DNA of 64,000 nt from Stegostoma tigrinum. Its lineage: Eukaryota. Positions within the stretch are counted from its first letter, which is position 1, and the number at the start of each line of letters is the position of its first letter. The translations under genes and the position numbers were made by a program. This document shows positions 10,628 through 56,878 of the stretch, in pieces. The notes below the pieces were generated by a model. The model was not told where the DNA came from, searched no databases, and worked only from the letters and a program-made list of their open reading frames with translations. The DNA lies in assembly GCF_030684315.1 (NCBI RefSeq), contig NC_081371.1, positions 26,221,440 through 26,285,439 on the forward strand. Reading direction: 5' to 3'.

Positions 10628-11370
10628 GATGTAAGTTGGTTCGCTGAGCTGGAAGGTTCGTTTTCAGATGTTTCATCACCATTCTAGGTAACATCATCAG
10701 TGAGCCTCCAGTGAAGCGCTGATGTTATGCCTCACTTTCTATTTATGTGTTTAGGTTTCCTTGGGTTGGTGATGTCATTTCCTGCAGTGCTGATGTCATT
10801 TCCTGTTCTTTTTCTCAGAGGGTGGTAGATGGGCTCCAAATCAATGTATTTGTTGATGGAGCTCCAGTTGGAATGCCATGCTTCCAGGAATTCTCGTGCC
10901 TGTCTCTGTTTGGCTTGTCCTAAGATGGATGTGTTGTCCCAAACAAAGTGGTGTCCTTCCTCATCTGTATGTAAGGATACTAGTGATAGTGGGCCATGTC
11001 TTTTTGTGGCTAGTTGATGTTCATGTATCCTGGTGGCTAGCTTTCTGCCTGTTTTTCCAATGCAGTGTTTGTCACAGTTCTTGCAAGGTATTTTGTAAAT
11101 GACGTTCGTTTTGCTTGTTGTCTGTATAGGGTCTTTTAAGTTCATTAGCTCCTGTTTTAGTGTGTTGGTGGGTTTGTGGGCTACCATGATGCCTAGAGGT
11201 CTGAGTAGTCTGGCAGCCATTTTTGAGATGTCTTTGATGTGGGGGAGAGTGGTTATGGTTTCTGGGCACGTTTTGTCTGTTTGTTTGGGTTTGTTGCTGA
11301 GAAATCGGCGGACTGTGTTCATAGGGTACCCATTCTTTTTGAATATGCTGTATAGGTGATTTTTTTTCTG
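10628..11370 (-). mobile_element. Penelope/Poseidon-type PLE 3' fragment with GIY-YIG endonuclease
   Basis: ORF 10732..11322 contains NVIYKIPCKNCDKHCIGKTGRKLATRIHEH...REFLEAWHS. The terminus carries a hammerhead motif. Confidence 0.9.
10664..10703 (-). ncRNA. Minimal hammerhead ribozyme motif in PLE terminus
   Basis: Minus strand reads UCA-CUGAUGA-U-GUUACC-UAGAAU-GGUGAU-GAAAC-AUC-UGA: conserved core, 6-bp stem II and 3-bp stem I. Confidence 0.75.
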
Positions 11371-12294
11371 CTCTTTGAGCCCAATTGCCTAACTAATAGC
11401 ATGAAGCATGGAAGATTGCATGAGAAAGGTCACGCCATAACAGGCCGTACGTCATGGCTCTGGCATAACAAAATACTGCACTGCACATGGATAAATTGTG
11501 TTCAATAATTTTAGACTAGTATCCTTAAATTAATAGGCCCTGGAAAAAGTTGTGTGAATACGTGAGAAACAGAACAGATGTGATAAAGGCAAACCATGTT
11601 TGACAAATTTAGCTGAATACGTTGATTAAGTACCAAAGGGTTTACAAAGATAGTACTGTTTTATATAACAAGACATTAAAATGCATAAAAGATCAATGTA
11701 CCACACATAATACATATTACAACAAATAAACTCACCAGAAAACTACAATTATAGAATTAAAAAGGCAATGTCAATGTGGGTAGAACGTTATCTACCAGAC
11801 AGAAAGCAAAGAGTAGTCAATAGTTACCATTCAAACTAGATGGAAGTCAACTGCAGCATTTTGAGGGAGTCATTATTAGGGCCATTGCTGTATTTGATTT
11901 GTATTAATTGAGTATATTTTGGCACACAAATCATCATTTTAACATTTTCAGCTCATACAAAGCTTGGCTATGCAGTAAACAGTCAAGAATAGCAGACTGC
12001 TGGGGACGACAGATTGGTGAAATGGACAGATATGCAGAAGATGCAATTACATGCACAAAAATATGTAATAATGTATTTTGGTGGGAAGAATAGGGAGATG
12101 CAATATGAACTGAATACTACTGTTTTAAAGGAAATTTGGAAATGGATCTAAGAATGTACTGCGTCAATTTTAGAAGTGGAGTAGGAGGAGCAGCACGAGT
12201 TGAAAAAGTTGTCAATAACAACAACTACAGAATCTTGCACAGCAATAAAATTAAGATAAACGTCTGTAAGTCACTGGCCAGGCATCAGCATTCT

Positions 12295-13655: not shown

Positions 13656-15200
13656 GTTGCTACCTATAGCCTATTGTTTTTCAGTACATGATAACTTAAA
13701 TGTTTTTAAAGTACCTGTACATACCAGTTATTTATTGCAGAACAAGATCTGTGTGGGATCTTATAGTTCTGCTGTGCAGCCATGCAGATAGGAAAGAACA
13801 TTACTTTGTACTTTACCAAAACCATTCACCTTCATTGCATACCTTCCAGCCTTGTATTTCTGCTGGCTTATGTTGTTTCCCTCAGCTGGATTCACCTGAA
13901 GCTGACCAAACAGAATTGACTGTGGAATTTTAAGCACAAATTGTGTTTGGCTCAACATGGGTCTCTTCAATCATTTGAATTATACTTTTTAAAAGAAAAT
14001 GTACTAAATTATTGATCTGACCAAAAAAAGGGCCAGACTATCAGTTTGAATTAATCAGCCTTGCAATATTCACCTAATTGCACCTTTTATGGGTTGTAAG
14101 ATTAAAAGGATTCTTTTAGGTACAATAAGGCTAGTGGGGAAATTTTAGAAATCTTTGGTATTTGTTTTAATAAGAAACTATAAACCAACATAAATAACAA
14201 ATGTTTGGGTGTAATTTTTTAAACGTCATTTGAAAGTGGGCTGATTTCAAATGATGGATTGATATTATGATTTAAAATGTTTGTTTTATGATAAACTCAT
14301 TGTTTTAATCAAACTGTGCCAACTCACTGATCTTTAATCACTTGTATAGCAACATGTTTCCTGGCAAACTTTACATTCATCAATATTCAAGTGGGTATGA
14401 GCAGAAACTGGCAGGAAAGAAAACACTGCTCAAAACTCGCATAATTTTGGATACAGTTTGAACTGGATTTCTTTTCCCTACATCAAAACCCCCATACTTC
14501 TGTGCTTATAATCGTATGGCAGTTGACCTGAAACTCTGGTCTGCTTCAAAAGAATTTTAAAGACAAAATATAAACAAAGGATGTTGAAAACACACAGTAA
14601 ATTTGGGAGCATCTCATTAAGGCCAAAGAGTTAAGATTTCAGACTAATTCTGGCAAAAAACACCTTTGTCTCTCTACCGTTAACTGCCAGATTTGCTGAG
14701 CAATTCTACAAAATCTGTTTTTAATTGCAGATTTACGACATCTGCAGGATTTTATTTTTGGTGCTGATGTTTAAGTACACTTTTACTTTATAAGTACTGG
14801 TACAATGACAGACATTATAAAATTAAGATGAAAAAATACATCAGTGTTAATTGTTTCACTGTGTACTTTCAATGGTTTTCATGCTGAACAAAACACTTTG
14901 TTCTGGAATTTTTCTGTAAATTGAGTTTAAATTTTTAGTTTACAAGCAATATCAGTTCATGAGTTACTTATCACAAGAGTGCACTGACATTCAGTATGGA
15001 CTTAAACAGATTTATTGATTTGTGTTTCCCTCTATTTGGGGATCTTAATCTAGTCTTAATGTTCACCAGAACATAAACTTTGGCTTTATCTCATGTATCC
15101 AAAATTACTTGACTGTCAGTTTTAGATGAAGAGATAACGTAATTTGCCTTGTATTATGCACTGAGGCTTTCAGTTGTAATACTTCCTAGGAGAATTTCGA

Positions 15201-15341
15201 CAACCCCACCTAGACTTTCTGCGCCAATCAGAACCTGTCAGTGATTTATTGGTTAGCAGTGATTTTGACCTCAGCATAATCTAACCAATTGTATCTTGTT
15301 CTTGTAGTTCCAAAGAATTACTGTGTTTGCCACATATATAA
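15201..15341 (+). promoter_or_regulatory. Putative promoter of the lectin gene: three CCAAT boxes and a TATA box
   Basis: CCAAT 15224-15228, ATTGG 15248-15252, CCAAT 15285-15289 and TATATAA 15335-15341, about 150 nt upstream of the ATG. A strong acceptor (TTTCTCTCTTTTTAG, ending 15458) implies a 5' UTR intron whose donor is unresolved. Confidence 0.5.
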
Positions 15342-15483
15342 TTGCCACAAACGAAATGCTCATACTGAAGAACTAGAATCATAGTGGGCACTTCTTGCTT
15401 TGCTTCAGGAAAGTAAATTTATTTTGGCATTAAAATTTAAATCTTTCTCTCTTTTTAGGCACAAGAAAAGGAAATTTACAGAC

Positions 15484-15538
15484 ATGAGACTGGGGACAGT
15501 TTTGCTGCTCATTGCACTGATCTACATTGATGCTGCAG
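15484..15538 (+). CDS. Secreted C-type lectin-domain protein, coding exon 1 (signal peptide)
   Basis: GACATGA start; MRLGTVLLLIALIYIDAA-G is a typical signal peptide; CAG|GTAGTT donor is phase 1 and matches the next exon. Confidence 0.82.
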
Positions 15539-15829
15539 GTAGTTTCAATCATAATCATATTTCATGCCATTTATTGCTGTGAAGTGAAGAACTGTTATAA
15601 GTTGGAAAATATCAATGAAATAAAACATTTAACCTTTTTGTATTTAAATTCATATAAGCTCCAAGTATTCTCTATTGATTTGGCCAAAATGATTCTGATT
15701 TGATAAATTTAGCCTGCAGTTCCATTTCATAACAAGTCAGTTTCCTTTAAAACAATCAGACACTATGTAGGTGTTTACTTGGACTATGGAATATTCTCAC
15801 ATGTTTAAAAATGTCTTGTAATTATGTAG

Positions 15830-16245
15830 CGCCATTCACAAGCACAGAATTTTCCAAAAAGAATTTTCCATGCAAAAAGCAGTGAAGTACTTTTGAATCA
15901 TAGTCACTGTTGTAAAATACAAACTGCGACCATTTGTGTAGTGACAGGTGTCATAAACAATATCATGGTAATTACCAACCATTTGTTTTAGTAACACTAA
16001 GTGATAAATATTAGCCAGGATACCAGAGACAGTTCCAGTACTCTTCTTAAGAGTTTACAGATATCTTAACTTTATCTGAGGTGACAGTCAGGACTTCAGC
16101 TTAAGATTTCGTTTGAAAGACAGTACTTCAGCACTTTCCCCAGCACTGCATTGAAGAATCTGCTTAAAATTTATGGTCAAGTCTCTGAAGTGGATTGAAG
16201 TCCACAATCTTCAAGCTCAGTGATCTTGGTTCTATTTGAGATCTG
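15830..16245 (-). mobile_element. Ancient Deu-domain SINE (SacSINE1/AmnSINE-like)
   Basis: Degenerate GAAGTACTTTTGAA-TAGTCACTGTTGTAA...GATAAATATTAGCCAGGA...CAGCACTGCATTGAAG...GTCAAGTCTCTGAAGTGG pattern; recognition only. Confidence 0.6.
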
Positions 16246-17361
16246 AGATTGTTTAAGTAGGTGATTACAAGGAGTTTGGAAGGATATTATAGAATAAGAA
16301 AGAATAATTGCAGAACTGAATAATGCATAGAGAACCTATCCCAAAAGCGCTGGTCTCAGTTACAGACTGCACTGTGGGGCTAGTTATGTTCAGTTGCAAC
16401 AAGGTTGCATAGAAATCTGAAGAGATGTCTGTCACACCTGCAATGGAGCTTTGCCAGCTGCACGCTGTCAGCTGTGCTGAAGATCATGCATTAATATGCA
16501 TAGGACCCACTGTCTATAGAACTACAAGTTCACACAACTTGTTTGAAGATTTTGATTTTTCCTCTATTGCAAGCATAATTACTGAAAGCATAATTTAGAG
16601 AATATGGTAAAAATAGAATGTAGGTATAAAGTTGCTAGTAGCCTAGCTGCCTCTTTGAATGAAAGGGGTAAAATAAGTTTAAAAGCAGATATTAAAATAT
16701 GAACATCTTATTTGTGTGCATTTTCATTTTCAACTCCTCATTCTGAATGTGTCATTACCTAATGTTCTTGTTTTCTGCTGTATTACCTTTTATTTTGAAA
16801 AAAGTCACTTTTTTCTTTTATATCTGTTACTCATTTACCGTAATAAACATTTCTTTACTCAAATATATTTATCGCTCTCTTCATCTTGGGTCATATCATT
16901 CTTTTGACACCAACTTTCCACATTCACCTCTTAATTAAAACAACCATGAAAGAAAGCATTGATACTTTCCCATTACACCGTAAAAGTTGTCAATTCTGAA
17001 TAATTATAGTAAGGGAGAATGCCAGAAATAATGAGGAAAGGCTAGCTTCTTGTATTGTTTTCAAGCTAATTAACTACTCTGGATTTGTTCAAATTAAATG
17101 TGAAGAGATATATAAAACTGCTGTTAGACAGTTATAGTATTGCATTCACCTGAGCACTGCACCTCACGAAAAGCATATTGTAAGAGGAGGGATTGCAGAA
17201 GAAATTCACCAGGATATTGTGGATGTTAAAAGTGTTAAATTATGAAGATATCCTATATAAACTAAACTTGTCTTCCATTCAGTAATATGTGATTAGTGGA
17301 TGATCTAACTGAGTTGCTTAAAATGATTAAAGGAGTTCTGTCTTGAAGTGCTGTTTGTTTA

Positions 17362-17713
17362 AGGGGCGGCATAGTGGCACAGCGGCACAGCAGTTAGCAC
17401 TGCTGCCTCACAACACCAGGGATCTGGGTTCAATTCCACCCTCAGGTGTGTGCGAAGTTTGCACATTGTCCCTGTGTCTGTGAGGGTTTCCTCCTGGTGT
17501 GCTGATTTCCTCCCACAGTCCAAAGATGTGCAGGCTAGGTGGATTAGTCATGCTAAATTGCCCGTAGAGCCTAGGGATTTGTACATTAGGAGTGTTATAG
17601 GGGATGGGTTTGGCTGGGTGCTTTGAGGGCCAGTGTGGACTCCTTGGGACAAAAAGCCTGTTTCCATGCTGTAGGGATTCTATGATCTATGATCTCTGAT
17701 CTATGATCTATGA
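17362..17713 (+). mobile_element. HE1-like tRNA-derived V-SINE, near full length
   Basis: A/B-box head (GTGGCACAGC...GGGTTCAATTCC), V-domain TTTGCACATT...CTCCCACAGTCCAAAGATGTGCAGG, CR1-like tail and (CTATGAT)n end. Confidence 0.88.
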
Positions 17714-20700
17714 ATTGATATAGGGGACTGTTGAAAGCTCATATCAGGAAATAGTTCTTCACACAGAAGCCGTGAACATTAAGAATTCTCTCCCAAATGC
17801 ATTGAGACCAGGGACTGGAATTTCTTTGCCAAAATGTGAGTCATGAAGTAGATTCATTTCCAGTCACAACCCTGCATTTGTCACCAATAAGTTGAAAATA
17901 GGAATTTCTGGAGAGAGATGCTTCAACACTCCTAGACATGAGTGTGTTGCTCAAATTGTGGCTGACGGAGAACAGGGATAGGAATAGAAGCAGGAATTCA
18001 GGGACGTGGGCTGGATCTGGCCTGATTTCGTAGCCATTTCTGTGACGGCCATTCACAAATCAATGCTTTTTGACAAAATTTGTGCATCGTGCATCGTGCA
18101 GATGGTAACAATTGAACTAGGGCAGAGTAGGCTAGTGATAAACTGACATAATGGCTTAACACCCCAGTGCCATGTTCAGCATCTTTGGTATCACTGTGAA
18201 ATGTATCTTCTCACCTAAGCTTGCAGCTGATCTTGTCCTTGCCTACATTGAGTTAGTCTAATGTCCAAAAGCTGATGAATCCAGTTGCCTTACTGAAGAT
18301 TGGAAAACCTACCAGGACCAGCCTGGTAATGAGCCCGCAAAGATCTAAGTTACCTTATTAATAGGACAGGGTGGATTTCAAGACTGGCTCCCTGCCCCAC
18401 TCGGAGAGAAATAGCAGGAAAGAAGCCAGGATCTCCAGCAAGCCACTCAATGTTCATTGTTTGCTCCCTGAAATTGATAGGCTTTATTATGACAGGTTAC
18501 TAAGGAGTGGAGATCTGAGGTGTATAAATGGAAATAAGATGCGGAAATACAAGTACATGGTTTAAGAATATGGATATGTAATTGACTAAAGAATGTTTGT
18601 ATTAAGATATTTACTCGAACTTTCAGGTACAGGAAATGTAATTTTGAAATTTGTGAATAATGCAAAACTTGGCAATATATCAAGTAGTGAAGAAGCTGTT
18701 AGTAGACTTCACAAGACGTAGCCTGATAAAATGGGCAGACCTATGTCAAAAACAATTTAACATGGATTACTGCGAGGTTTGGGAGAAGCGAAGTGAACCA
18801 GAGGGGATTTACTTGTCAATTATTGTCATTTTGTTCATTTTGCAAGTGAAGCATGTTTACAATTTTTTGAAGAAGGGAAAGCAAGTTGATACAATGGTAA
18901 ATAAAATGTATAGGAAACTTGGTTCAATGAAAGGGGCATTGGATAGAAAAATGAAGAATTCATGCTAAATCTTTACAAATCATTGTTAGGTCAAAGCTGG
19001 AGCATCTTGTATAATACCAGCATCCACACTTCGGGTGGTATGCTTGGCATCTGAGAAGGGATGGAAGGAATTTATAAGAGATGAAGGACATCTGGAGAGG
19101 GTGAAGAAACTGGGATGATTCCCCATAGCACTGAGAAAGGCTACTGAGTGAGATATGTTATATACCATGGCTAAAACGCTGGTTAGACAGATGTCAGTAA
19201 TTTACTTTGTTACTTGGAGTTTTGTTGTCAGTTCACACTCCACGAACTTCAACACACTGATTAATTCTTCATATTTATGAATACTTCCTAACCAACCTAC
19301 TATGAGATATTGACTAGGGCTTGAACCCAGGTCTTCTGGGTGAGAGTTAGGGACACCATTACTGTTCCACTAGAGTCCTCAAGTTGTAAGCATATATTTA
19401 AATCAATCTGTTCAAATACATGTCTGGGACAGGTGCAACTTGATCCCTATCCTACTGGCTCAGAGGCAGGGACACTACCAATATAGTGAGCCTCTTCCCT
19501 GTATTAATGTGCTGAGCTCTCACCCAATTATCCAATAAGATATATGTAGCCAGTGTCTGTTCACTAATTGCATTAGGTTTCAGACATGCTTGCTAGATCC
19601 TACTTGGTGATTACAGGGTGGGATGGGGTGCCAGCCGTAAGCAGCAGGTAGCAAATAACATCGGGGATGCCATCAAGTCACTTGAGTTGCTTAATCCCTA
19701 TAGAGGACCATTTTGATTATCTTGACATGACAATGGCTTGAGAAACTTGTTCAATAAAGAAATGAAAATCGGATTGTCAGGTCTATCAGAACTCCATAAT
19801 AATGTCTAATAAGAATATTAAAAGTTGAGAACACATTGGGAGAAGTCCATAATAGGGTAGAAGCAATTATTAACTAATAAATCTGTTGACCATGAGTGAC
19901 ATTTATTTAAGAAGATATTGATAAATTTAAAGAAAATCCTGCATATCAGTAATATAAGCATTATCTATGAATGTTTCATATCAGTATTGAATAAAAGGAG
20001 ATTTTATATAACAATAAGGGATATTCGCAAGAGTATTAATAGGGACGCTTATAGAAAGCAATAAAAGACTGAAAGGTAATGAGGCCAAAGAGAGAATGAA
20101 TAAAATTTCAGATATTAGTACAGATGGGGTTAGTACAATGGGATTCTTATATTTAGATGTACATCAGTAGAAAGAGTGGAGAAGGAGAGAGCATTATAAA
20201 CATAACTGATGCAACAACCGCACTGTGGTTTTTACAGTCATAATGCCCTTTTCCCTTTAAGAAGTGCTGACTACCTTGAGGTAATGTCAAAGATCCTTAA
20301 TATCTGGTCCCCCAAAAGTATGCTACCTGCACCTAATGAATAGTAAAGGTTATACTCTCCCCATGATACTGGAATTGACATGATAATGAGTAAGGTACAT
20401 AAATTTTCAATGTTAACTGGGTGACAGCATCTGATACTCACTGTGTGCCTTTTAATGGGCACAGTTGAATTTCTAGGAGAATGTTATCTTTCACTTTATC
20501 AGTGAAAGTATGATACATGCAGGCATCGACATTTTTACCTCTATGAAATGGGTTGTACTTTCATCATTCCCTTTTGATTCCCTCTGGCTAGTTGAGTTTT
20601 CACATTATAATTTCCTGAAGCATTTATTTGCCAGACTAGGTCTCTGCTAACCAGTTCACTTCGTGATGTTGTCCATTTGTCGCTTCCCATAGTAACTTGC

Positions 20701-21338
20701 TGCTCATAACAATAACTTCCTCCATATGTTTTGCAGCTTCTGATTTTGCTGAAAGTTATGTATCTGCTTTACTACAGACTATACTAAACATTAAGATATA
20801 GATTACCCTGTTAAAGGATCAGTTGTTAACTAATCAGCTATGATTTATAACAATTCTGCAATAGCTTAAATATTGGGTTTACCTCACACATTACACAGCT
20901 TGCAGCACAATTTTGGAGGCAAAGTGTCTCAAAATATGTTTTAAAACAGATTTGTGTGCATAGGGTGCTATACATGAACGCAGGGCACTTTATAGGCAAT
21001 TAAGCATTTTAAAAATAATCACTGATGCAACGAGGGAAATGCGACAATGATCAGATAAACTGTTCTCGAAAAACAAACATTGACAAGAATATGGTGGGTG
21101 GTAACTCCCTTGTATTTTCCCAACATTGTGCCTTAGGACCTCTGCATCCACATGAAAAGATGATGGGCCTCAGTTTAACATCTCATCTGAAAAACAAATG
21201 GAACAGTTACAGTAACATTGTAATTAGCTAGAATTTAGTTGAACTATAAAGGACTGATGACTTTAATTAGAAGTATATGAAAGCCCTTTAGTGCTCGCGG
21301 TACTTTTTGCCAACTTGTTTATTTTATTAATTTTACAG

Positions 21339-22174
21339 GAACTGCCAGTATTCGGAATTCAGCAAATCGAATGAATGAGAAAAAAATACAAACACTTCGT
21401 CACCATCTCTCTGACAGCAATAATCAAATGAAATTTTATCCACGTCCTATGCCTTTTCCTGAGAAAAATGCAGAGCTACGTTATGCCCTTTCTTTTCCTG
21501 AGAACAACCCAGAGGTACCTTTAACCCATCCCATTGCTTTGCCTGAGAACAACAATGCAAGAGCACCTTATCCCCATTCTAGTCCTTTGCCTGAGGGCAA
21601 CACTGTAGCAAATTATCCTTACCTTATCCCTTTGCCCAAGAGCAACTTAGAGTCTTCTTATTACCGTACTCATCCTTTTCATTCTCAGAATAAACCAACT
21701 TTAGCTCAAGATTTTCCTCGTACTTATCTTGTAGCCTCTGCCCATAAATTTCCTATGAAGGGCAATGTAATTATACCTGAGAACCGTCCTTATCCCCATC
21801 CTTATCCTCAACCTTACCCTTTTCTGAACAAGAACAAATTACTACCTTTTACCTATCCTGAAGTGCAAACTTATCCATCTTCAGAGCGTGAGTCAGAGGT
21901 AGAACCTTCTCATTCTCCAGAGAATGTGACAGAAATGGAAACTCAACCTTCTTTAGAAGATGAGCTGGAACAGGAAGTTGATTCTTCATCAGAGGATGAC
22001 GCAGAAAAGGACGTCCTAGTTCCTTCAGAGATTGAGATGCAAAAGAAACCATCACCTGCTACGATAAGTCCCCATGTCAATCAAGCATCTTGTTTACCTG
22101 GGTGGATTTTTAACAGCAAATTATCCATCTGTTACAGCATTTTTCAAGGTAAAATGACCTGGATACAAGCTGAG
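21339..22174 (+). CDS. Secreted C-type lectin-domain protein, coding exon 2 (Pro/Tyr-rich repeats, acidic repeats, start of CTLD)
   Basis: TTTTACAG acceptor, 836-nt open frame (phase 1 to 0) ending CLPGWIFNSKLSICYSIFQGKMTWIQAE, and GAG|GTAAGA donor. Confidence 0.9.
21437..21691 (+). repeat. About six degenerate ~45-nt (13-16 aa) coding repeats, consensus YPxxxP(F/L)PExN
   Basis: FPEKN, FPENN, LPENN, LPEGN, LPKSN and FHSQN are spaced 13, 15, 16, 15 and 15 aa apart; DNA cores resemble CCTTTKCCTGAGAACAAC. Confidence 0.8.
21872..22054 (+). repeat. Five 36-nt (12 aa) acidic coding repeats with S-x-E
   Basis: TCAGAG, CCAGAG, TTAGAA, TCAGAG and TCAGAG fall at 21881, 21917, 21953, 21989 and 22025, an exact 36-nt period, giving SSE, SPE, SLE, SSE and PSE. 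Confidence 0.85.
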
Positions 22175-22419
22175 GTAAGACGTTGGATGATCTTGTTTTT
22201 TGAGTTGATAAAATAGATCATTAGCTCAATTAAAGGACAAAATAACAATAATTCCTAACTGGTATAAGTTTTGGATGGTTCAGATTAACAAAGCATACTC
22301 AGTCATTGAGATGCAACTTTACACGTGCATTATATTGGATTTATATGCAGAATTGGACTGGTTTTTGAAACCTTACTAAAAGTAATTGGTGCTAGTAATA
22401 TAGGATTTCAAATCTCTAT

Positions 22420-22635
22420 AGATAACAAAGTGTGGAGCTGGATGAACACAGCAGGCCAAGCAGCATCTTAGGAGGACAAAAGCTGATGTTTCGGGCCTAG
22501 ACCCTTCATCAGTAAGGGTCTAGGCCTGAAACATCAGCTTTTGTGCTCCTAAGATGCTGCTTGGCCTGCTGTGTTCATCCAGCTCCACACTTTGGTATCT
22601 TGGATTCGCCAGCATCTGCAGTTCCCATTATCTCT
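22420..22635. mobile_element. Palindromic PLE-derived mini-element (Neptune-type end) with hammerhead motif and 16-bp TSD
   Basis: Arms ~22421-22506 and ~22514-22599 are inverted. TSD GATTTCAAATCTCTAT at 22404-22419 and 22636-22651. Minus strand reads CUGAUGA-AGGGUCUAGGCCC-GAAAC-AUC. Confidence 0.88.
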
Positions 22636-22973
22636 GATTTCAAATCTCTATGTTAGGGCTTCATGAAATGTTGAAAGGAATAATAAATATGTAGATGAAT
22701 GTACTATTAAGTATGGAATAAAGTAACATAAAATGCCGGGTTCAAGTTCCGTTTTGGACTGGGCTAGTGACTCTAGGACTTTATCTTATGTTGGAGAGGT
22801 CAATTGAATAAAAAATGAGAAGAACGGCTGATGCAATAAAAATCACACTTCTGCACAAGTTAGAACTTTCAGGAGACGAGGAGTAAAGATGAAACATGTA
22901 TTGCCAAAAGGCTCAATTGACAAAATTAGAGGTTGGATACAATTTTTCCATTGTCATAAATTCATCCGTTTAG

Positions 22974-25900
22974 ATTCATAGAGCCATGAAGATGTATAGC
23001 GTAGAAACAGACCTTTCAGTCCAACATGTCCATGCCAACCAGATATCCTAAATAAATTCAGTCCCATTTTCCAGAATGTGGCCCATATCCCTCTAAACTC
23101 TTCCTATTCATATACCCATCCAGATGCCTGTTAAATTTTGTAATTGTACCAGCCTCCACCACTTTCTCTGGCACCTCATTCCATACACACAACACTCTCT
23201 GCATGAAAAGTTGCCCCTTAGGTCACTTTTTGATCTTTTTCCTTTCACCTTAAACCAATGATGTCTAGTTTAGACTCCACACCCCAGTGGAAAGACTTTG
23301 GCTATTTACCCAATCCATGGCCCTCATGATTTTATAAACCTCCAACACTCCAGGGAATATAGTCCCAGCCTATTCAGCCTCTCCCTATAGCTCAAACCTC
23401 CACCTCTGGCAACATCCTTGTAAATCTTTTCTGAAGCCTTTCAAGTTTCACAATATCCTTCCTGTAGCAGGGAGACCAGAATTGCACGCAGCATTCAAGA
23501 AGTGGTTGAACCAATGTGCTGCATAGCTACAACATGACCTCCCAACTCCTATATTCAATGCATTGACGAATAAAGGCAAGCATACCCAAGCACCTTCTTC
23601 ACTATCCTATCTACCTTTGACTCCACTTTCAAGGAACTATGAACCTGCACTCCAAGGTTTCTTTGTTCAGCAACATCCCTCAGGACAGTTACCATTAAGT
23701 GTATAAGTCCTGCCCTAATTTGCCTTTCCAAAATGCAGCACCTCACATTTATCAAAATTAAAATCCATCTGCCACTCCCTGGTCCATTGGCCCATACGAG
23801 CAAGATCTTGTTATACTCGGAGGTAACCTTCTTCAATGTCCATTACACCTCCAATTTTGATGTCATTCGAGAAACTTAATAATCATATTTCCTATGTTCA
23901 CATCCAAATCATTTATATAAATGAAGAAAATCAGTGGACCCAGCTCTGATCCTTGTGGCACACTGCTGGTCACAGGCCTCCAGTCTGAAAAGCAGCCCTG
24001 CACCATCACAGTTTGTCTCCTACCTTTGAGCCAGTTTTGTTTCCAAATGGTTAGTTCTCCCTGTATTCCATGTGATCTAACCTTGTTGAATGCCTTTCTG
24101 AAGTCCATATAGATCATGTCAACCACTCTGCCCTCGTCAATCCTCTTTGTTACTTCTTCATAAAACTCAGTCAAGTTAGTGAGACATGATTTCCCAAGCA
24201 CAAAGCCATGTTAACTGTCCCTAATCAATCCTTACCTTTCCAAACACGTGTAAATCCTACCCCTCAGGATTACCTCCAACAACTTGCCCAGCATTGATGT
24301 CAGGCTTACCAGTCTGTCATTCCCTGGGTTTTTCTTACCACATTTCTTAAATTGTGGCACCACATTAGCTAACTTCCAGATTTCCAGCGTCTCACCTGTG
24401 GCTATTGATGATACGCATATCTCAGCAAGGGGCCCAGCAATCACCCACCTAGTTTCCCACGGAGTTCTAGGGTAAACCTGATCAGATCCCGGAGATTTAT
24501 CCACCTTTATGCATTTTAAGCTATCCAGCACCTCCCCCTCTGTAAATGGACATTTTCCTAGAGGTCGCTATTTATTTCCCTACATTCACTGTCTTCCATA
24601 TCCTCATCCACAGTAAAACTGATGCAAAATACTCTTCTAGTTTCTCCACCATCTCCTGTGGTTTAACACATAGGTGGCTTTGCTGATCTTTAGGGGACCC
24701 TATTCTCCCCCTAATTATCCTTTTGTCTGTTAAGTACTTGTAGAATCCCCTAGATTCTCCTTAACCATTTTGGCAAAGGTATCTCATGCCCACTTTCTGT
24801 CCTCCTGATGTCCCTTAGGTATACCCTTACTGCCTTTATACTGTTTTAGGTATTCACTCAATCTCTACTGTCTATCCCTGATATACGCTTCCTTTTTTTT
24901 CTTGACCAAATCCTCAATTTCTCTCGCCATCCAGCATTCCTTACACCTGCCAGCTTTGCCCTTCACTCTAATAATAACATATCGTTTTTGGACTTTTGGT
25001 GTCAGATTTTTGAAGCTTCCCATTTTCCAGCCATCCCTTTGCCTGTAAATATCTGCCATCAATTAACTTTTGCAAGTTCTTGCCAAATACCATCAAAATT
25101 GTGCTTCTTCCAATTTAGAGCTATAACTTTGAGATTTGGTCTATCCTTTCCAATCATTGCTTTAAATGATTAACTATGGTCACTGGCCCCAAAGTGCTCC
25201 AGCACTGACACCTCAATCACCTGCTCTGACTTGTTTCCCAAGAGCAGGTCACGTTTTGCACCTTCACTGAAGGTACATCCACATACCGAATCAGAAAATG
25301 TCCTTGTACACACTTAACAAATTCCTCTCCATCGAAGCCCTTAACACATTGGCAGTCCCAGTCTCCATTTGGAAAATTAAAATCCCCTACTGTAGTTACC
25401 CTATTATTCTTACAGATATCTGAGATTGCCTTTCAAATTTGCTCCTCAATTTCCCATTGACTATTGGAGAGGGCCTGTAGTACAATCCTAATAAGGTGAT
25501 TATCCCTCCCTTTTTCCTCAGTTTCATGCAAATAACTTCTCTGGTTGTATTCCAGGAATAGCCTCCCTAAGTACAGCTGAAATGTTATCCCTAATCAAAA
25601 ATGCGATTCCCCCTCCCGTCTTGCTTCCCTGTCTATCCTTCCTATTAGCACTTGTGCCCTGGAACATTAAGCTGCCAGTCCTGCCCATCCCTGAGCCACA
25701 TCTCTGTAATTACTATGATGTCCTAATCCCATGTTCCCAACCATGCCCTGAGTTCATCTGCCTTACCTGTTAGGGCTCTTGCTTTGAAGTAAATGTAATT
25801 TAATTTATCAGTCCTACCTCATTCTCTGCTTTGTTCCTGTCTGTCCTGACTGTTTGACTTGCTCCTTTTCCCAACTGTACCAGGCTCAAACTGATCTCTT

Positions 25901-26036
25901 TCCTCACTATCTCCCTAGGTTCCCATCACCTACCCCCTTAACTAGTTGAAATCCTCCTAAACAGCTCTAGCAAATCTCCCCACCAGTATATTAGTCCCCT
26001 TCCAGTCCAGGAGCAATCCATCTTTCTTATATAGGT
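22974..26036 (-). mobile_element. Long degenerate CR1 LINE (endonuclease to RT to 3' UTR) in lectin intron 2
   Basis: Fragmented minus-strand ORFs 23555..23836, 23863..24201, 24232..24531 and 24865..25062 contain KSPG, SCLTNL, MDFRKAF and VPQGSELGP. Confidence 0.88.
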
Positions 26037-27194
26037 CTTGGTTTGAAGCCATTTGAAACCTGAATGAGATTGCTGTCCAGTGAGAAATCCCAAGATTTAT
26101 TCTATCCATAAATACAAGGTGATTTCTTAAATCAGTCTCCCATGATTTAGTATATCGGGCTTAAAATCCATACCCTCCCAGTTTTAGGTGCGGGGAGCTG
26201 CAATTACTTTGTGCCTGGTCATGCTGAGGAAGGCATCACACAAACTTTGTACAGCCTCCTCATGAGACTAATTATAATCTCAGTTGGGCATTGTTGAACA
26301 TTCAACAGGCACCCAGCAGTATGCATGGTTAACATGGAACTTAGTACATCCACGTGGAACTATTCTGAGGCCAGCAAGAGGCCTGACAGGTAAGGCAGAT
26401 GAACTCAGGGCATGGGTAGGTACATGGGACTGGGATATCTCTTAATGATGACTTGCTCCTCTTAAATGGAACTGTACTCCAGTTCTGCTAACTGCCAGTA
26501 TAACAGTTGTATACATGGAGGAGTTAAATCAATGAAGTACTATGGAAGGAAGAGAATTCTTAAGTTCAGATGTAGTGCTTGAGGGCTTGGTAATGAAATT
26601 TGAACAGGTGGAGGGGAGCCAAGGGATAGAATTTGGTTTATCCATTTTGAGGGATGGTGGTCATAATTACCTGCTCACCCAGTTCCATATAAATTTTATT
26701 TCGCTAAAATAAAACAAATTGCTGGAGAAGCTCATTAGAACCAAACGTTTAAAACATTAACTCCGTTTTCTCCCTGTAGATATAGCCAGATCTGCTAAAT
26801 TCCTCCAGAAATTTCTGTTTTTGTTTTAAATTTTAATTTCACTTCATTTTCATGGTTGTAACATGGCCCTAAATGGATCCTGTGTTGCATTCCTTTCTCT
26901 TTAACACATTAGTGTAACTGACCTCTAAAGTAATATTCAGAAAAATACAAATTGTCTGGATTGTCACAGAAAGTACTTGTGCAGTGTTCTTGAAGGGAAA
27001 TATAAGGTTAGTAGACAATCATCACAGCAATCATCCAGACGTTGGTCCTTGATAGCAATTCTGCTGAGGTTTTCTTTATTATAAGATTTTAATTAGAATT
27101 ACTGACTGGAGAACTGTAATCACATTGAAACTAGATGGAACTGAACATGACTGGAGGGGAAAAAAATCACAAACCATTTTATTTTAATTTCAAG

Positions 27195-27335
27195 GTGTCT
27201 TGTCAAATGTACGCAAGAGGTGCTCATCTTGTCTCCATACATGGGGATGAACAAAATCAGTTCATTCAGGGGTTGATAAAGCAGAAGAATCCAGTACAAC
27301 CCAGCATGTGGATTGGACTAAGTGATTGTCACAAG
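27195..27335 (+). CDS. Secreted C-type lectin-domain protein, coding exon 3
   Basis: TTTCAAG acceptor; 141 nt, phase 0-0; VSCQMYARGAHLVSIH...MWIGLSDCHK; AAG|GTAAAA donor. Confidence 0.92.
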
Positions 27336-28431
27336 GTAAAACTGTTTTGAGAGATTGTAACCTGGACATTTACTGTTAGAACAATTCGTTTATTTACTAA
27401 TTTCTCAATTTTTTTCTGTGAATGTAACAATTTTCTTCAGCTGTGGTAAAATCTCTATTTCAATGAATATCCATTGACTATCAATGACGCAGCTGAATTA
27501 GTAGTCTGAATTTTTAATGTTATTAGGTCCATCCCTCCCCCCAAGTCCTCCTCAATTAACCCACCCAACATTAATCAGTTCATTGAAATGTCCACATATT
27601 GATTCCATTCTTGCATATCTGAATAATGTTGTAGATTTTTTAGCATCTGGGCCAATGACTTCTGGAGTCTTCCAGAAATCAATACTTCTTCACCCATCAT
27701 CATTTACACGTTGCCTCTTAGTGAATCACGTCAATGTAGGTTGACAAACATCCAGTTTTATTTCTTTATTATCTGTCTGACTGCTCCACTGATTTGGTGC
27801 TAAACAGCTTGCCTGACGCCCATTCCTGACTGAGTCTTTTATGCTATCAGCAAAATATTGAAAAGGCTAAAGCTGTCACATTTGGTCCCCAGCAAAAATT
27901 CTGTAACCTTGCAATTGATTCCATCTCTCTCCCTAGCCTATTCTTAGTTTCAAAATGAATTTCTGGATTAATTTTCTCTTTATCACAAAGATTCTGATTC
28001 TATTACATTTGCATCCCTGTCAACATCTTCATTCTTAAAGTTTATATTCCTCTAGTTAGATGCTTAGTGCTCTCTTCCACATCCTTTGCCTCAAAATCAG
28101 CAACAGCACCTTCAGAAGTCTAAAGTGCACACTCTGGGATTCCTTTTTCAAACTTCCCCACTCCTTTTATCCTTTAGGATTACTTCCATATCTTCTTTAT
28201 GAAGTCTAATCATCAAACTTGAGACTCACCATTTCTTTGAATCAACATTTCTTTATGCTAAAGGCACCATTTAGATGATGCCTTTGTTGTATTTGTAGTG
28301 TTAGTTATAATGGACGGGCTGATCTATAAACTTCTAGGAGTGCAGGTTTGACAGTTGATGCGGACTGTAATTTCCAACTTTATATTATGTGAATTGATAT
28401 TTTGTCATTAATGATATTATTTCTCATGAAG

Positions 28432-28543
28432 GAGGGCATTTACCTCTGGACTGATGGATCTGTGCTGGATTTCACAAAGTGGAGTATTGACCAGCCTAAT
28501 GATGAATCAGACTCAGAAAACTGCGTGAGCGTTAATTCTGAAG
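28432..28543 (+). CDS. Secreted C-type lectin-domain protein, coding exon 4
   Basis: 112 nt, phase 0-1; EGIYLWTDGSVLDFTKWSIDQPNDESDSENCVSVNSE; AAG|GTACAT donor. Not in the supplied ORF track. Confidence 0.92.
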
Positions 28544-29332
28544 GTACATTGAGATTGTAAACTATGTTATGATGCTTAATAATTTTAGAACCATGAAAAA
28601 TTTGATGTTATGAACAATGGGGAAAATTATCACCCAATAATAGCCATCACTGAGATTTGCATTCCAACTAAACATGAGCATTTAATCACTATTAAACTAA
28701 GAAGTGACCAGGCTGAACTCTGCATTGACAGTGTTGGCATTTAGATTCAGATATATTTTTGTCTAAAAGGGCTTTCTAAGATTGTCCTGATATCCATCAG
28801 TTAAAAAAAACTTTTTTTGATGAAAGCTCCACAAGTTAAAATAATGAAATCATTGGTACAGTATCATAAATCAATTTCATTTGATACTTTGATAAGATCT
28901 ATAATGTATATCTTCCTCATTTTTCTGGAATACCCCTGTTGCTTGAAATGTTGTAAAAGTTCTTTGTTAAGCCAACAACTTTCTAATGAACCAAATACTT
29001 ATTGCTCCCTTTCAAGAGACAGTGTTGAATTTTATTCAATATCGGAGATGCAGACATTGCCAGCAAAGGAATTAAAATGAACAATCTGTTTTCACTGGAG
29101 AGCTTCATTATTCAATTGAAGGATTTTTCAAACAATGCCTGGTTCTGGCAACAACTCCCACCCAGCCCTCATAATTAATTTGCCTTCACATCCAGCTGCA
29201 GCACTGATCACTTCTGAGGACTGGATGCTGTCCCAGCTCTGGCCATTGTTCACAATTGCACTTCTGGGAACAGACAGCTGCTGGTAATTTAATTGGATTT
29301 TCTCCCAGAATGGGGTGGTAGGTCTGGGTCAA

Positions 29333-29985
29333 AAACATAAGAACATAAGGACTAGGAGCAGGAGAAGGACATCTGGCCTCTCGAGCTTGCCCTGCCATTT
29401 AATAAGATCATGGCTGATATTTTTGAGACTCAGCTCCACTTACCCACCCACTCACCTTTAACCCTTAATTCCTTTACTGTTCAAAAATTTATCCTAGCCC
29501 TGCCTTAAAAACATTCAATGAGGGAGCTTCAACCACTTCATTGGGCAGGGAATTCTACAGATTCATGACCCTTTGTGAAGAAGTTCCTCCTGACCTCAGT
29601 CCTGCATCTGCTTCCCTTCATTTTGAGGCAATGCCCTCTAATTCTAGTTTCACCTGCTGGCGGAAACAACCTTCCTGCCTCCTCTTTATCTATTCCCTTT
29701 GTAATCTTTTAGGTTTCTATAAGATCTCCCCTCATTCTTCTGAATTCCAATGAGTATAATCCCAGTCTACTCAGTCTCTCCTCAGAATCCAACCCTCTCA
29801 ACTCTGGAATCAATCGAGTGAATCGTCTCTGCACCCCCTTCTGTGCTAGTATATCTCTTCTCAAGTAAGGAGACCAAAACTCCATGTGTCACCTCACCAG
29901 GACCCTATACAGCTGCAGCATAGCCTCCCTGCTTTTATCCCTTGAGCAATGGCAGACAAAATTCCATTTGCCGTTTAATCACCTG
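29333..29985 (-). mobile_element. CR1 3' fragment
   Basis: AACATAAGAACATAAG is the reverse complement of a CR1 tail, followed by degenerate C-terminal ORF2 sequence. Confidence 0.8.
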
Positions 29986-29989
29986 TAAG

Positions 29990-31420
29990 AAGTTACAACT
30001 AGTAGAGTTGACAAGGGAGAACCAATCAATATAGTATTTTGAACTTACAGAAAGCATTTAACAAAGTTCTACATAAGAGATTAATGTGCAAAATTGAAAC
30101 ACATGGGATTGGGAAAAGTGTTTTAAATGGATTGGAAACTGGGTGGCAGAGGGGAAATGGGTGCTTTTCAAATTGGCAGGCAGCAACTAGTGAGATGTCA
30201 CATGAATTGTTGCTGGGACTGCAGCTATTCACAATATATAGTAATGATTTGGATGAGGGAACAGAATGTAACATCTCCAAGTTTGCAGATGATACCAAGT
30301 TGGGTGGGAGGCAAACTGTGATGAGGATGCAAAGATCCCTCAGCATGATCTCGACAGGTTGGGTGAGTGAGAGAATCAATGGCAGATGCAGTATAATTTG
30401 GATAAATATGTGGGTATTCACTTTGGAAACAAAGACAAGAAGGCAGATCACTGCCTGAATGGCTGTAAATTGGGAGAGGGGAGTGTGCAGTGGGACCTGG
30501 GTGTCCTTGTGCACCAGTTACTGAAGGTAAGCATGCAGGTGCAGCAGGGTGTAAAGAAGGCAATTGGTATGTTGGCCTTCATTGCGAGAGGTTTGAGTAC
30601 AGGAGCAGGGGTGTATTATTGCAGTTATACAGGGCCTTGGCGAGGCCACACCTAGAATATTGTGTGCAATTTCGTCTCATTTTCTGTGTAAGGATGTCGT
30701 TGCTCTCGAGAAAGTTTACTGAAGGTAGTGAGTTTTGAGAAGATTTGTAGCTCAGGTTGAGGTTCTGGATGTAATTTTGCTCGCTGAGCTGGAAGGTTTG
30801 TTTTCAGACGTTTCGTCACCATTCTAGGTAACATCATCAGCTTCACCGGAGGCTCACTGATGATGCTACCTAGAATGGTGATGAAACGTCTGAAAATGAA
30901 CCTTCCAGCTCAGCGAGCAAACTTACATTTACTGAAGGTTTACCAGCCTGATTCTGGGGTTGGCATGTCTCATTTATGAGGAGAGATTGACTGGGTCAGG
31001 ACTGTTTTCGCTAGAGTTTAAACAAATGAGGGGGACATAGAGACTCATTAAATTCTAATAGGACTGGACAGAGTAGATGCGGAGAGGATGTTCCCAATGG
31101 TAGGTGTGCCGAGAGCCAGGGGTCACAGTCTGAGGATTCAGGGAAGACAATTTAGGATGGAGATGAAGAGACATTTCTTCTCTCAAGAGTGGTGAGCCTG
31201 TGGAATACATTACCACAGGAAATAGTTGATGCCAAAATGTTCAGTGTATTCAACAGGTGGCTGGATATAGCACTTGGAGCGAGTAGGATCAAAGGTTATG
31301 GGGACAAAGCAGCATTAGGCTATTGAGTTGAATGATCAGCCATGATCGTGAAGAATGGGTAGAGCAGACTCAAAGGACTGAATCACCTCTTCCTGCTCCT
31401 TACCTTCTCAGTTTCTACAT
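29990..31420 (+). mobile_element. CR1 RT/3' fragment, interrupted by the PLE mini-element at 30727-30927
   Basis: ORFs 30039..30458 (LQKAFNKV, ISKFADDTKLGG) and 30490..30738 (LYRALARPHLEYCVQF). Confidence 0.85.
30727..30927. mobile_element. Palindromic PLE-derived mini-element (Poseidon-type end) with two divergent hammerhead motifs and 12-bp TSD
   Basis: TSD TTTACTGAAGGT at 30715-30726 and 30928-30939. Hammerhead cores at 30804-30840 (-) and 30854-30893 (+), both ending GAAAC-GUC-UGA. Same family as 10628-11370. Confidence 0.9.
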
Positions 31421-32351
31421 TTTGAAGCCCAATTAATGGCTTGATGTTTCTTAAATGGCTGCTGGAAGAGACTGGAAAACTGGGGCAAGACCTTTTACAC
31501 TAGTACGCAACTCACTATTTGGTCACTTATTGTGATTTTTCTCTAGATCGGCCAATCATAACACATACTTGCAATTATTTAGTGTCTGTAATAACCAGCA
31601 AATAGATGTCTCAGTGCTTTACAGCCAAATGAAATATTTTTGAAGTGTAAGCCTTATGTAATATAAGAAGTAGCCAAAAGTTGACTTTGGTGTCAATTAA
31701 GGCTCTTGAATCTGGACAGTGTGTCAGAAGCCTTACTTCTTGGAAGGTACAAGGCTGTGATGGTGAGTAAAGGCATTTTAAAATGACTGGTTAATTAAAA
31801 ACAACTTTACATCCTTTTACCTCATTTGAATCCATGAGTTAGTTCTTTTGAAGGACAATTCCTAAAATGATAAGAATCTAGTTATGAAGATGAAATTGGT
31901 TCTAATCTTAAAAAGATTTCAAACATATCCAATAAAAACACTTGGAAAGAAAATGTGCTATGTTCTAAAATTAACAATAACTTGGAAAGTAGTGGTGGCA
32001 TTTCTTCAAAATCAGCACCCCCACATTCTCTAGATTATCTATTCATGTCCGTGTGTTTGTCCATATCAAGAGATTCCAATGACGCGTGGGAAATTTTGAA
32101 TAACAAAAAGAATTAATTGAGTTATTGAAATATGATTGGTGAAGGTAGTTCTTAACACTGTTCATAAATGCTTTTTCACCTCCAAAAGTCAGAAAGGAAT
32201 ATGTCTAGTTTTTTTTTCAGTACTGAACTGTCTAATCTAGCATTCATACATTAAATCCAAATAGAAGAAATACATGTGTATAAAACAGTCATTCATTGAC
32301 AACCATATCTGTGACAGAAACTATTCATCATAACAATTACTTTTTTTTCAG

Positions 32352-32425
32352 GTATTGAAGGCAAATGGCATGAGAGAGTGTGTTCAGATGAACTTCCATT
32401 TATTTGTTCCTACAAGCTCTTCTGA
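32352..32425 (+). CDS. Secreted C-type lectin-domain protein, last coding exon
   Basis: T-rich CAG acceptor, phase 1; (G)IEGKWHERVCSDELPFICSYKLF then TGA. Total CDS 55+836+141+112+74 = 1218 nt, 405 aa. Confidence 0.92.
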
Positions 32426-32525: not shown

Positions 32526-32548
32526 AATAAACACATCTGCATAATAAA
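32526..32548 (+). terminator. Tandem polyadenylation signals of the lectin gene
   Basis: AATAAA at 32526-32531 and 32543-32548, about 100-120 nt after the stop, followed by T-rich sequence. Confidence 0.7.
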
Positions 32549-35520: not shown

Positions 35521-35792
35521 CTACATTTTATTACTAAACTGGATCACATATTCTGGGTAAATGTGATATTTCTCGAATATGACAAACAAAGATGGATTAT
35601 CCACACAGTCAACGCAGCTATCATAGGGTTTGAAGCTTGTGACATCTTGGGATGGTGGCCGATCATAGCTTGGATGTCCTTTAGTAAACTTTCCTACCAA
35701 AACCCGTGCCAAAAACATGATTTTGAAATTTGCTGTAGAATCTGAGTGCAAGTCAAAGTTGGCATTGGAAGCTTTTACGGCAAAATACGTCC
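35521..35792 (-). CDS. PARP12/ZC3HAV1-like protein, last coding exon (PARP domain C-terminal half)
   Basis: CTTTTCTTTTCTTCAG acceptor, phase 1; (G)TYFAVKASNANFDLHSDSTANFKIMFLARVLVGKFTKGHPSYDRPPSQDVTSFKPYDSCVDCVDNPSLFVIFEKYHIYPEYVIQFSNKM then TAG. Confidence 0.93.
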
Positions 35793-39888: not shown

Positions 39889-40161
39889 TAGTTTGAAGTA
39901 ATTTGGTTTTCTCATGTTCTGCAGTTAGTTTCCAAGTCGGGTTCAAAGACTGGCTGAACTAAGGTACCTTCTATTACTTCAGATACCCTTATATAATTTC
40001 TTCTTAATTTTCAACCTCATTTGGAGCCATGTTTTCTCAGAAAGCACCCAACATTATAAATGTAAGACTCTGACTTTTCTCTATTTGGTACATTTTTGTG
40101 TGCTGAAAATTAATAATTTAAAATTAATTTTCATGCAGATTAATAAAACAAATTTCCCTAC

Positions 40162-40313
40162 CTTTTCCAAACAAAGTTCCACTCTGTGTGAAACTTCCCC
40201 AATCAAAGTTCTGGTAGCAAATGGCATCAATAATTGAGTGATCTGTGACTTCGTGAAAAAGAAGTCGTTCATCTGCATCTGCGTGATTCTTTTTCTTTAT
40301 CTGTTCTTTCTGC
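40162..40313 (-). CDS. PARP12/ZC3HAV1-like protein, penultimate coding exon
   Basis: ACACAG acceptor; 152 nt, phase 2-1; (W)QKEQIKKKNHADADERLLFHEVTDHSIIDAICYQNFDWGSFTQSGTLFGK(G); AAG|GTAGGG donor. Confidence 0.93.
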
Positions 40314-56656: not shown

Positions 56657-56878
56657 CTGTTGTAAAATTAAAGAATATTAAATATTACCCAATATTATAC
56701 AATGCAGAGTTATCTAAGACACTTGCAACATTTGTGCATTTTGCCATCAGTGAAATAGATGTCAGAGGTTAAGAAGTAAACATTCTTTACATTTTGGTAT
56801 CAGTTTCACCAAACATTCCCAAACTCAGTACAACACAGGAGAGAGGTTAAAATAAAACAAAGAAATCCAGATGCATCT

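Follow-up and report, generated by a model that had tools for sequence, protein, structure and literature searches.

A lectin gene of sharks and rays with a conserved two-repeat extension, and its possible role in calcium mineral

Background

What does a secreted C-type lectin do with some 250 amino acids (aa) of repetitive sequence in front of its lectin domain? The question is raised by a gene in a stretch of 64,000 nucleotides (nt) from Stegostoma tigrinum (assembly GCF_030684315.1, contig NC_081371.1, positions 26,221,440 to 26,285,439, forward strand), which was analysed as a whole and is called the window here. An original prediction, made from the letters of this stretch, had read positions 15484 to 32425 as a 405-aa lectin and had proposed it as a shark biomineral or matrix protein. 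Sequence comparisons show the gene to be real and to represent an apparently undescribed elasmobranch family of group VII-like lectins with a 250-aa two-repeat extension.

Gene structure

Five coding exons splice into a product of 405 aa. All four introns are GT-AG, their phases are 1-0-0-1, and the sole stop is the terminal one. The exons are:

15484..15538, forward strand: coding exon 1, which encodes the signal peptide (up to about residue 18), then a phase-1 intron; from the splice model and hydropathy, and kept in the orthologues
21339..22174, forward strand: coding exon 2 (836 nt), the entire extension and the first 28 aa of the lectin domain, then a phase-0 intron
27195..27335, forward strand: coding exon 3, lectin domain with the WIGL motif and the unpaired Cys342; both flanking introns phase 0
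28432..28543, forward strand: coding exon 4, lectin domain with a QPN loop (QPD in three other sharks)
32352..32425, forward strand: coding exon 5, end of the lectin domain (WHE replacing WND) and TGA

The coding frame of exon 2 is open over 278 codons, and the two other frames contain 16 and 19 stops. At the local intron composition, the chance of a stop-free frame of 278 codons is about 2e-9. The exon 2 translation is 100% identical to the database model P0002 ('uncharacterized protein LOC125460939 [Stegostoma tigrinum]'). The last 385 aa of the spliced product are identical to this model as well, and its first 18 aa align at position 58 of P0002. Spliced translation and the match to LOC125460939 bear out the five in-frame exons originally proposed. 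The signal peptide, which was assessed from hydropathy only, is likewise supported: the N-terminal 9-residue hydropathy mean is 3.28, and the 19-residue maximum elsewhere is 0.89.

Two tandem repeats in the extension

Hidden in the extension are two tandem repeats, newly recognised here, one Pro-rich and one acidic, with a linker between them:

21425..21646, forward strand: Pro-rich tandem repeat, residues 48-121; its five units, each 13-16 aa long, end in a motif of the P-E-x-N type
21647..21877, forward strand: Pro/Tyr/His-rich segment without periodicity, residues 122-198
21878..22057, forward strand: acidic tandem repeat, five units of 12 aa (36 nt), residues 199-258, consensus S-x-E-[D/N]-E-x-E-x-E-x-x-x

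The acidic repeat can be seen in the DNA, where self-identity reaches 58% at a lag of 36, the sole lag between 20 and 60 to exceed 36%. Residues 196-256 are 25% Glu and 16% Ser and have a net charge of -16. Four S-x-E motifs lie at residues 199, 211, 223 and 235; the fifth unit of Stegostoma starts with Pro instead of Ser. In seven of eight proteins, the score at lag 12 is higher than that of the best lag in 3000 shuffles (p <= 0.003), and 14-16 acids stand at alternate positions compared with 2 at the others (again 7/8). Columns were counted over the first four units of seven species, leaving out Leucoraja. Column 1 is Ser in 27 of the 28 units (Thr in 1), and columns 3, 7 and 9 are each Glu or Asp in 27 of 28. 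Over all eight species, 24 of the 60 columns of the block are invariant, and an N-x-T sequon at residue 214 is kept in every full-length orthologue (8/8). FAM20C has the consensus S-x-E, and the residue that leads each acidic unit would be a site of this type. The significant feature of the block is the 12-residue register of S-x-E, not the number of motifs.

The Pro-rich repeat is also present at the DNA level (repeat family D1, spacing 45-48 nt). Self-alignment of the proteins at an offset of 15-16 is above the 99th percentile of 100 shuffles in four of eight cases, and the batoids are about 30 aa shorter, lacking roughly two Pro-rich units. Residues 51-195 contain 20% Pro, 10% Asn, 8% Tyr and 4% Thr; in the extensions of the eight orthologues, Tyr ranges from 4 to 8%, His from 5 to 7% and Gln from 2 to 6%. 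The original description of a Pro/Tyr/Asn-rich repeat region has to be revised in two respects: the Tyr enrichment is modest, and residues 20-47, the approximately 29 residues behind the signal peptide, are basic and non-repetitive.

The charge-hydropathy criterion classes both segments of the extension as disordered. In comparisons of sharks with rays, the acidic block (67% identity) is as well conserved as the lectin domain (68%), whereas the Pro-rich part (39%) and the linker (30%) are less so. The extension is a genuine, conserved part of the protein. In the Hemitrygon model P0020, a Cys is found inside the acidic repeat.

The lectin domain

The product contains a single Lectin_C domain (PF00059, E 1.3e-19, 71.3 bits with a Pfam cut-off of 22.6), as had been predicted. 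A Pfam scan of five shark proteins gave 66-73 bits for Lectin_C in all five and no other domain; the ray proteins list PF00059 alone and align end to end. Pfam score, WIGL motif and conserved cysteines place the domain in the C-type lectin-like superfamily. It has the six canonical cysteines, whose disulfide pairing is deduced from their positions, and one spare, Cys342. An eighth Cys occurs in the lectin domain of the Scyliorhinus torazame model P0008.

The calcium-dependent sugar-binding signature (EPN or QPD together with WND) is absent from all 11 models examined. The Asn of WND is replaced by His, Tyr or Asp, which leaves the sugar site non-canonical in 11/11, and the loop motif reads QPD in three models (sharks), QPN in two, and QPE, HLE, LPE or RPK in rays. 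The unpaired Cys342 is invariant in 11/11, as are D341 and E345, putative auxiliary calcium-site ligands by comparison with the ligand positions of mannose-binding protein. D368 is kept in 9/11 and lost in both stingrays (Hypanus P0019 and Hemitrygon P0020). The domain is acidic in all of eight proteins, with a net charge of -7 to -11.

Among the best 60 of 207 PDB matches, the highest-scoring single-domain structures were the rattlesnake galactose lectin 1jzn (75.5 bits), BJcuL (74.7) and lithostathine 1qdd (66.9); tetranectin (51) and struthiocalcin-1 (45.7) came lower. Structure models were of low confidence, with a predicted local distance difference test score (pLDDT) of 31.6 for the orthologue alignment and 37.7 for the single sequence of Hemitrygon P0020, and nothing was concluded from them.

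Relation to known lectins and mineral proteins

A signal peptide, one C-type lectin-like domain and the lack of a transmembrane or collagen part agree with group VII, and so do the coding intron phases 1-0-0-1, which are the pattern of this family. The short length typical of this group (about 150 aa, with little before the domain) is not found, owing to the 250-aa extension. Like the free lectins of group VII (REG1/lithostathine, REG4, snake galactose lectins), the protein has a signal peptide and one long-form domain with three disulfides; unlike them, it carries a disordered extension of about 250 aa with two tandem repeats, and its sugar site is non-canonical. Simple lectins measure about 150 aa (PMC8144736), compared with 405 aa here. 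A group VII-like (REG-like) architecture, as suggested by the original prediction, is thus supported by the intron phases, the domain architecture and the PDB search scores (1jzn, 1qdd).

Other lectin classes fit less well. PRG2 and PRG3, the precursors of eosinophil major basic protein, also consist of a signal peptide, an acidic segment and a single lectin domain. Their domain is strongly basic and neutralised by the acidic piece, whereas the domain here is acidic, which does not agree with group XII. The Ig, link, EGF and CCP modules, multiple lectin domains and transmembrane helix of lecticans and mannose receptors are missing.

SM50 has an N-terminal lectin domain and a Gly/Pro/Gln-rich repeat, and is not known to have an acidic S-x-E block. 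In this protein of the sea-urchin spicule, a lectin domain and a Pro-rich region are combined in a mineral matrix protein (PMC8144736); a phmmer search of exon 2 against 1.84 billion representatives detected no homology of the extension to it. Ovocleidin-17 (OC-17) and XCA-1/XCA-2 (struthiocalcin) have the simple secreted lectin fold, act on calcium mineral and lack a long extension, and OC-17 bears two phosphoserines (PMC8144736).

SCPP, elasmobranch Scpp, the Sparc-L N-terminus and chondrichthyan Spp2 are likewise secreted and acidic, with SxE sites and Tyr- or Pro-rich segments (PMC9122587; PMC13188829). They derive from sparc-L or cystatin-type genes, and in elasmobranch scpp coding introns 1 to 3 are all of phase 0 (PMC9122587). 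Judged by the SCPP criteria of PMC9122587, the lectin gene shows the signal peptide, the acidic region and the SxE sites, but not the phase-0 coding introns, and it ends in a globular domain that SCPPs do not have. Its modules, unlike those of SCPP, lie within one exon after a phase-1 intron and ahead of a lectin domain. Elasmobranch Scpp is without a P/Q-rich domain (Table 1 of PMC9122587), whereas the product of the lectin gene has a Pro-rich, Gln-poor one. Because of the phases 1-0-0-1 and the lectin domain, the gene is not an SCPP. The original prediction came to the same result, although its premise that SCPPs are proteins of bony vertebrates is outdated, as elasmobranchs, too, possess their own scpp gene (PMC9122587).

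Distribution among sharks and rays

A search with exon 2 yielded seven proteins among 187 candidates, with 63-100% identity, from five sharks (Stegostoma, Chiloscyllium, Heterodontus, Carcharodon and Scyliorhinus torazame). With a profile of five shark proteins, 17 were found among 5310 candidates: the same seven, four from batoids (Pristis, 376 aa; Leucoraja, 378 aa; Narcine, 370 and 300 aa), and six unrelated lectins that matched in the domain only. A domain search among short proteins gave three hits from three candidates, namely isoform X3 of Hypanus (218 aa), a 183-aa protein of Hemitrygon and a generic lectin. The entire extension is present in models from eight species (five sharks and three batoids), and two stingrays, Hypanus and Hemitrygon, have shorter models in which most or part of it is missing, although these species may also have longer isoforms.

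None of the exon 2, profile and short-protein searches, which rely on shared words and length limits, returned an orthologue from a chimaera or a bony vertebrate. The phmmer search had five matches only, two orthologues and three weak ones (38-50 bits) to unrelated repetitive or multi-lectin proteins. Restriction of the gene to elasmobranchs is thus suggested, but not proven, since the searches depend on such words and limits. In the ESM Atlas, the whole protein matched generic lectin clusters only (0.89-0.91), and the extension had no usable match.

In a tree of ten lectin domains and one outgroup, built without P0004, P0006 and P0012, which are isoforms or partial models, the five batoids split from the five sharks (92/99), and both carpet sharks and both stingrays pair together. 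This is the tree expected of single-copy orthologues across sharks and rays. The database labels of the orthologues either say 'uncharacterized' or 'hypothetical' or mislead (mannose receptor-like, aggrecan-like, BPL-like). In support of the original prediction, no characterised orthologue was found in the protein and literature searches made. The catshark gene LOC119957192 ('uncharacterised' in PMC13188829) was checked as a possible orthologue by way of its primers and ruled out: with 5 mismatches the reverse primer finds a site, but there is none for the forward primer 764 nt away.

Possible function

The reading that we favour, and to which we give about an even chance, is that of a secreted, mostly disordered phosphoprotein that binds calcium mineral and controls it, with a lectin fold of group VII (REG-like) as its base; this reading includes the expansion of one exon of a group VII lectin gene by two internal tandem repeats. 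This estimate is based on the 12-aa register with its putative FAM20C sites, on the precedent for SxE sites in chondrichthyan mineral proteins, and on lectins that act on CaCO3. The mineral role in the original proposal also gains weight because the S-x-E repeat with its alternating acids is conserved and the sugar site has decayed. In catshark, fam20C is expressed in ameloblasts; elasmobranch Scpp has SxE sites, and elephant shark Sparc-L has a 24-aa acidic repeat (PMC9122587). SxE sites were gained by Spp2 duplicates (PMC13188829), and CaCO3 is acted on by the simple lectins OC-17 in eggshell, REG1 in the pancreas and SM50 in urchin spicules (PMC8144736).

A mechanism can be proposed as follows. 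After removal of the signal peptide, FAM20C in the Golgi would phosphorylate the Ser heading each 12-aa unit, which would yield four or five phosphoSer-x-Glu-x-Glu-x-Glu-x-Glu blocks. In an extended strand, the acids on one face could bind Ca2+ of amorphous or crystalline mineral, and this binding might stabilise precursors or steer crystal growth. Alternating acids that face the crystal from one side of a strand are a known design of dentine and shell proteins. The weakly basic Pro-rich repeats would be a self-assembling spacer or scaffold, and the acidic lectin fold, its usual sugar binding gone, would serve as a mineral- or matrix-docking head, possibly dimerised via the spare Cys342. The protein might act in teeth and denticles, in tessellated cartilage or in the inner ear. 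A more specific version, in which ameloblasts secrete the protein as an enamel-matrix-like component of shark and ray enameloid, having arrived at the layout of enamel proteins (a Pro-rich scaffold and an acidic mineral-binding repeat phosphorylated by FAM20C) from a lectin gene, independently of both SCPP families, and supplying the Pro-rich module that elasmobranch Scpp lacks, is speculative, and we regard it as rather improbable.

Several observations weigh against a mineral function. The acidic tracts of SCPPs evolve fast, unlike the strongly conserved acidic block here, and this conservation could reflect a protein partner, not a crystal. The raw number of S-x-E motifs is not above that of shuffles of the block in seven of eight proteins (p 0.04-0.66), so that of the acidic S-x-E module originally described it is the 12-residue register that stands and not an excess of motifs. 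The shuffle p-values are themselves somewhat generous because the limits of the block were chosen after the pattern had been seen. Leucoraja fails the register test (lag-12 p 0.08; alternation 10 to 9) because a one-residue deletion breaks the register. At the level of gene models, an isoform of Carcharodon skips exon 3, and Hypanus X3 and Narcine X3 skip much of the extension. Transcripts lacking most of the extension had been named beforehand as evidence against the proposal; these two models are partly of this kind, and full-length models exist in eight species. The literature searched, in which few subscription papers were covered, neither names three gene identifiers of the family nor describes a shark lectin of this kind in connection with enameloid, ameloblasts, denticles, ampullae, oviducal gland, otoconia or hydroxyapatite. 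In the readable parts of the catshark skeletal gene lists, clec3a and CLEC11A are the sole lectins named, and 256 of 654 transcripts are unannotated (PMC13188829); the main text of a catshark tooth RNA sequencing (RNA-seq) preprint contains neither 'lectin' nor 'clec'.

Among the other explanations, the one that survives best, which we nevertheless consider unlikely, is that the protein serves as a structural polyanion in an extracellular gel or matrix without mineral, for example in the jelly that fills the ampullae of Lorenzini or the lateral-line canals, in endolymph or cupula, or in a secretion of the reproductive tract. Hydration and cation buffering would come from the repeats, and cross-linking of the matrix from the lectin head, to which the spare invariant Cys could contribute. 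A secreted, disordered protein with a net charge of -16 in its acidic block and a sequon in 8/8 full-length orthologues would suit this role, and the gene spans sharks and rays, all of which, as far as is known, have ampullae. On the other hand, a gel could do without a strict 12-aa S-x-E register and without acids at every other residue, and the extension is not Thr/Ser mucin-like (4% Thr in residues 51-195). Titles and the beginnings of abstracts gave no evident report of such a lectin for ampullae, oviducal gland, otoconia or Leucoraja.

An innate-immune or surface-defence lectin of skin, gut, plasma or granulocytes, with the acidic segment as a pro-piece or stalk as in REG3 or the eosinophil PRG2/PRG3 precursors, appears slightly less probable still. 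Against it, the domain is acidic, the opposite of the basic PRG2 domain, and the canonical sugar site is missing in 11/11 models. In favour of an immune lectin are the retention of QPD in 3/5 sharks, the group VII identity of the closest single-domain structures among the PDB matches listed and the PARP12-like gene next door. The skin of Heterodontus japonicus has reportedly yielded a C-type lectin, and OC-17 has antimicrobial activity (PMC8144736). However, one supplement of a shark skin mucus proteome has no entry for 'C-type lectin' or chiPu_0016108 (PMC10707392), and one gene per species in a tree that follows shark and ray relations would be unlike the expanding immune lectins.

A Tyr-crosslinked egg-case or oviducal-gland protein is very improbable. 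The protein is secreted and has Pro/Tyr/His repeats, but Tyr accounts for merely 4-8% of the extension, and the conserved block is the acidic repeat, not the Tyr-bearing part. Full-length genes also occur in Narcine, Pristis and Carcharodon, which are live-bearers without a hard egg case. The egg-case and denticle-only roles allowed for by the original prediction are weakened because of this low Tyr content and because the full gene is kept in Narcine, which is both live-bearing and naked-skinned. That the working product is a short free lectin and the long exon 2 a minor or tolerated splice form, as the short models of Hypanus (218 aa), Narcine (300 aa) and Hemitrygon (183 aa) and in-phase AG sites late in exon 2 (e.g. 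22029 and 22086) might suggest, has hardly any probability in view of a 278-codon open frame (p about 2e-9) that is conserved in eight species with 24/60 columns of the acidic block invariant. A venom role, prompted by the snake lectins at the top of the PDB list, was rejected: the gene also occurs in sharks that are not known to be venomous, and titles and abstract beginnings of the stingray-venom literature gave nothing specific.

Gene ends and genomic neighbourhood

The TATA and CCAAT elements upstream and the AATAAA downstream that had been predicted are present:

15224..15341, forward strand: candidate proximal promoter by sequence pattern, with CCAAT at 15224, reverse CCAAT at 15248, CCAAT at 15285 and TATA at 15335
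15440..15458, forward strand: polypyrimidine tract and AG acceptor, 25 nt upstream of the ATG, where the upstream sequence of three species' models joins
32526..32548, forward strand: two AATAAA polyadenylation signals by sequence pattern, at 32526 and 32543

Given the 31 TATA-pattern and 164 CCAAT/ATTGG matches in the 64-kb window, three CCAAT boxes within 111 nt before a TATA are unusual, with a Poisson probability, estimated by hand, of about 0.004 for the cluster. Database models from three species (P0002, P0004, P0006/7) have extra N-terminal sequence joined at the acceptor 15457-15458. The 48 extra N-terminal residues of P0002 do not map within the window. Positions 13666-13755 show a 73% match to the extra N-terminal sequence of P0004, the Chiloscyllium model; they could be a non-coding exon further upstream or else non-coding sequence that has been conserved. 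The ATG close to the TATA is plausible as the start of the 405-aa protein, and is supported as the true start because the orthologue alignment begins at or near it. A donor-like site at 15413 together with the acceptor at 15458 would form an intron of 46 nt after a short non-coding first exon, a layout of the REG type; this candidate 5' intron (15413-15458) is very short by vertebrate standards.

For neighbouring genes, the 300 longest of 322 non-repeat open reading frames (ORFs) of at least 48 aa in the window were scanned for domains. Besides lectin exon 3, two ORFs gave a match, both to PARP, with human PARP12 as the closest protein (E 8e-23 and 4e-8). The PARP12-like gene to which they belong lies tail to tail with the lectin gene at a stop-to-stop distance of about 3 kb. 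The LFHG of human PARP12 is LFHE with a one-residue insertion in the window copy, and catalytic activity of the predicted product is uncertain. No paralogous lectin exon was seen in the 64-kb window. The OC-17/XCA locus is flanked by genes such as LMF2, NCAPH2, TYMP and CPT1B, and PARP12 is not among the flanking genes given for the eggshell-lectin loci, in a synteny figure legend, or for the REG4 locus in PMC8144736. The PARP12-like neighbour, which represents the downstream side only, would not fit the ovocleidin-17 locus. It was also the sole neighbour available for a check of linkage to sparc-L, again on the downstream side and from 300/322 ORFs.

No Rfam family was found in the window. 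Its remaining features, including the coordinates of the PARP12-like gene, are:

35521-35792 and about 40160-40313, reverse strand: last two exons of the PARP12-like gene, by similarity to human PARP12
877-2466 (forward), 56780-57601 (forward), 57772-58707 (reverse) and 46420-47043 (forward): ORFs like the reverse transcriptase of long interspersed elements (LINEs), the longest stop-free over 529 aa, identified by appearance
49333-50914 (forward), 55008-55752 and 10732-11388 (reverse): fragments that resemble Penelope-type retroelements
17360-17713: insertion like a short interspersed element in lectin intron 1, with a 7-nt tandem tail (five copies, 17679-17713)

Near-identical LINE copies suggest recent activity. 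A terminal sequence shared by the Penelope-like fragments also occurs inside lectin intron 2, at 22420-22641.

Implications

According to a 2024 review, enamel-matrix-like proteins of chondrichthyans are strongly suspected, with their presence and identity unconfirmed (PMC12120383). The lectin gene is a concrete single-copy candidate for such a protein, conserved in sharks and rays, and RNA-seq data from 31 catshark tissues already exist for assigning it to a tissue (PMC11979771). The 12-aa alternating-acid repeat is also a compact natural peptide for work on crystal growth. If the protein acts on mineral, it would show that vertebrates reached a mineral phosphoprotein by yet another independent route and would join the lectin-based carbonate systems of eggshell, urchin spicule and pancreas to the skeletal S-x-E systems. 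If it is a gel or immune protein, the gene would still define an undescribed elasmobranch family that is mislabelled aggrecan-like or mannose-receptor-like in rays.

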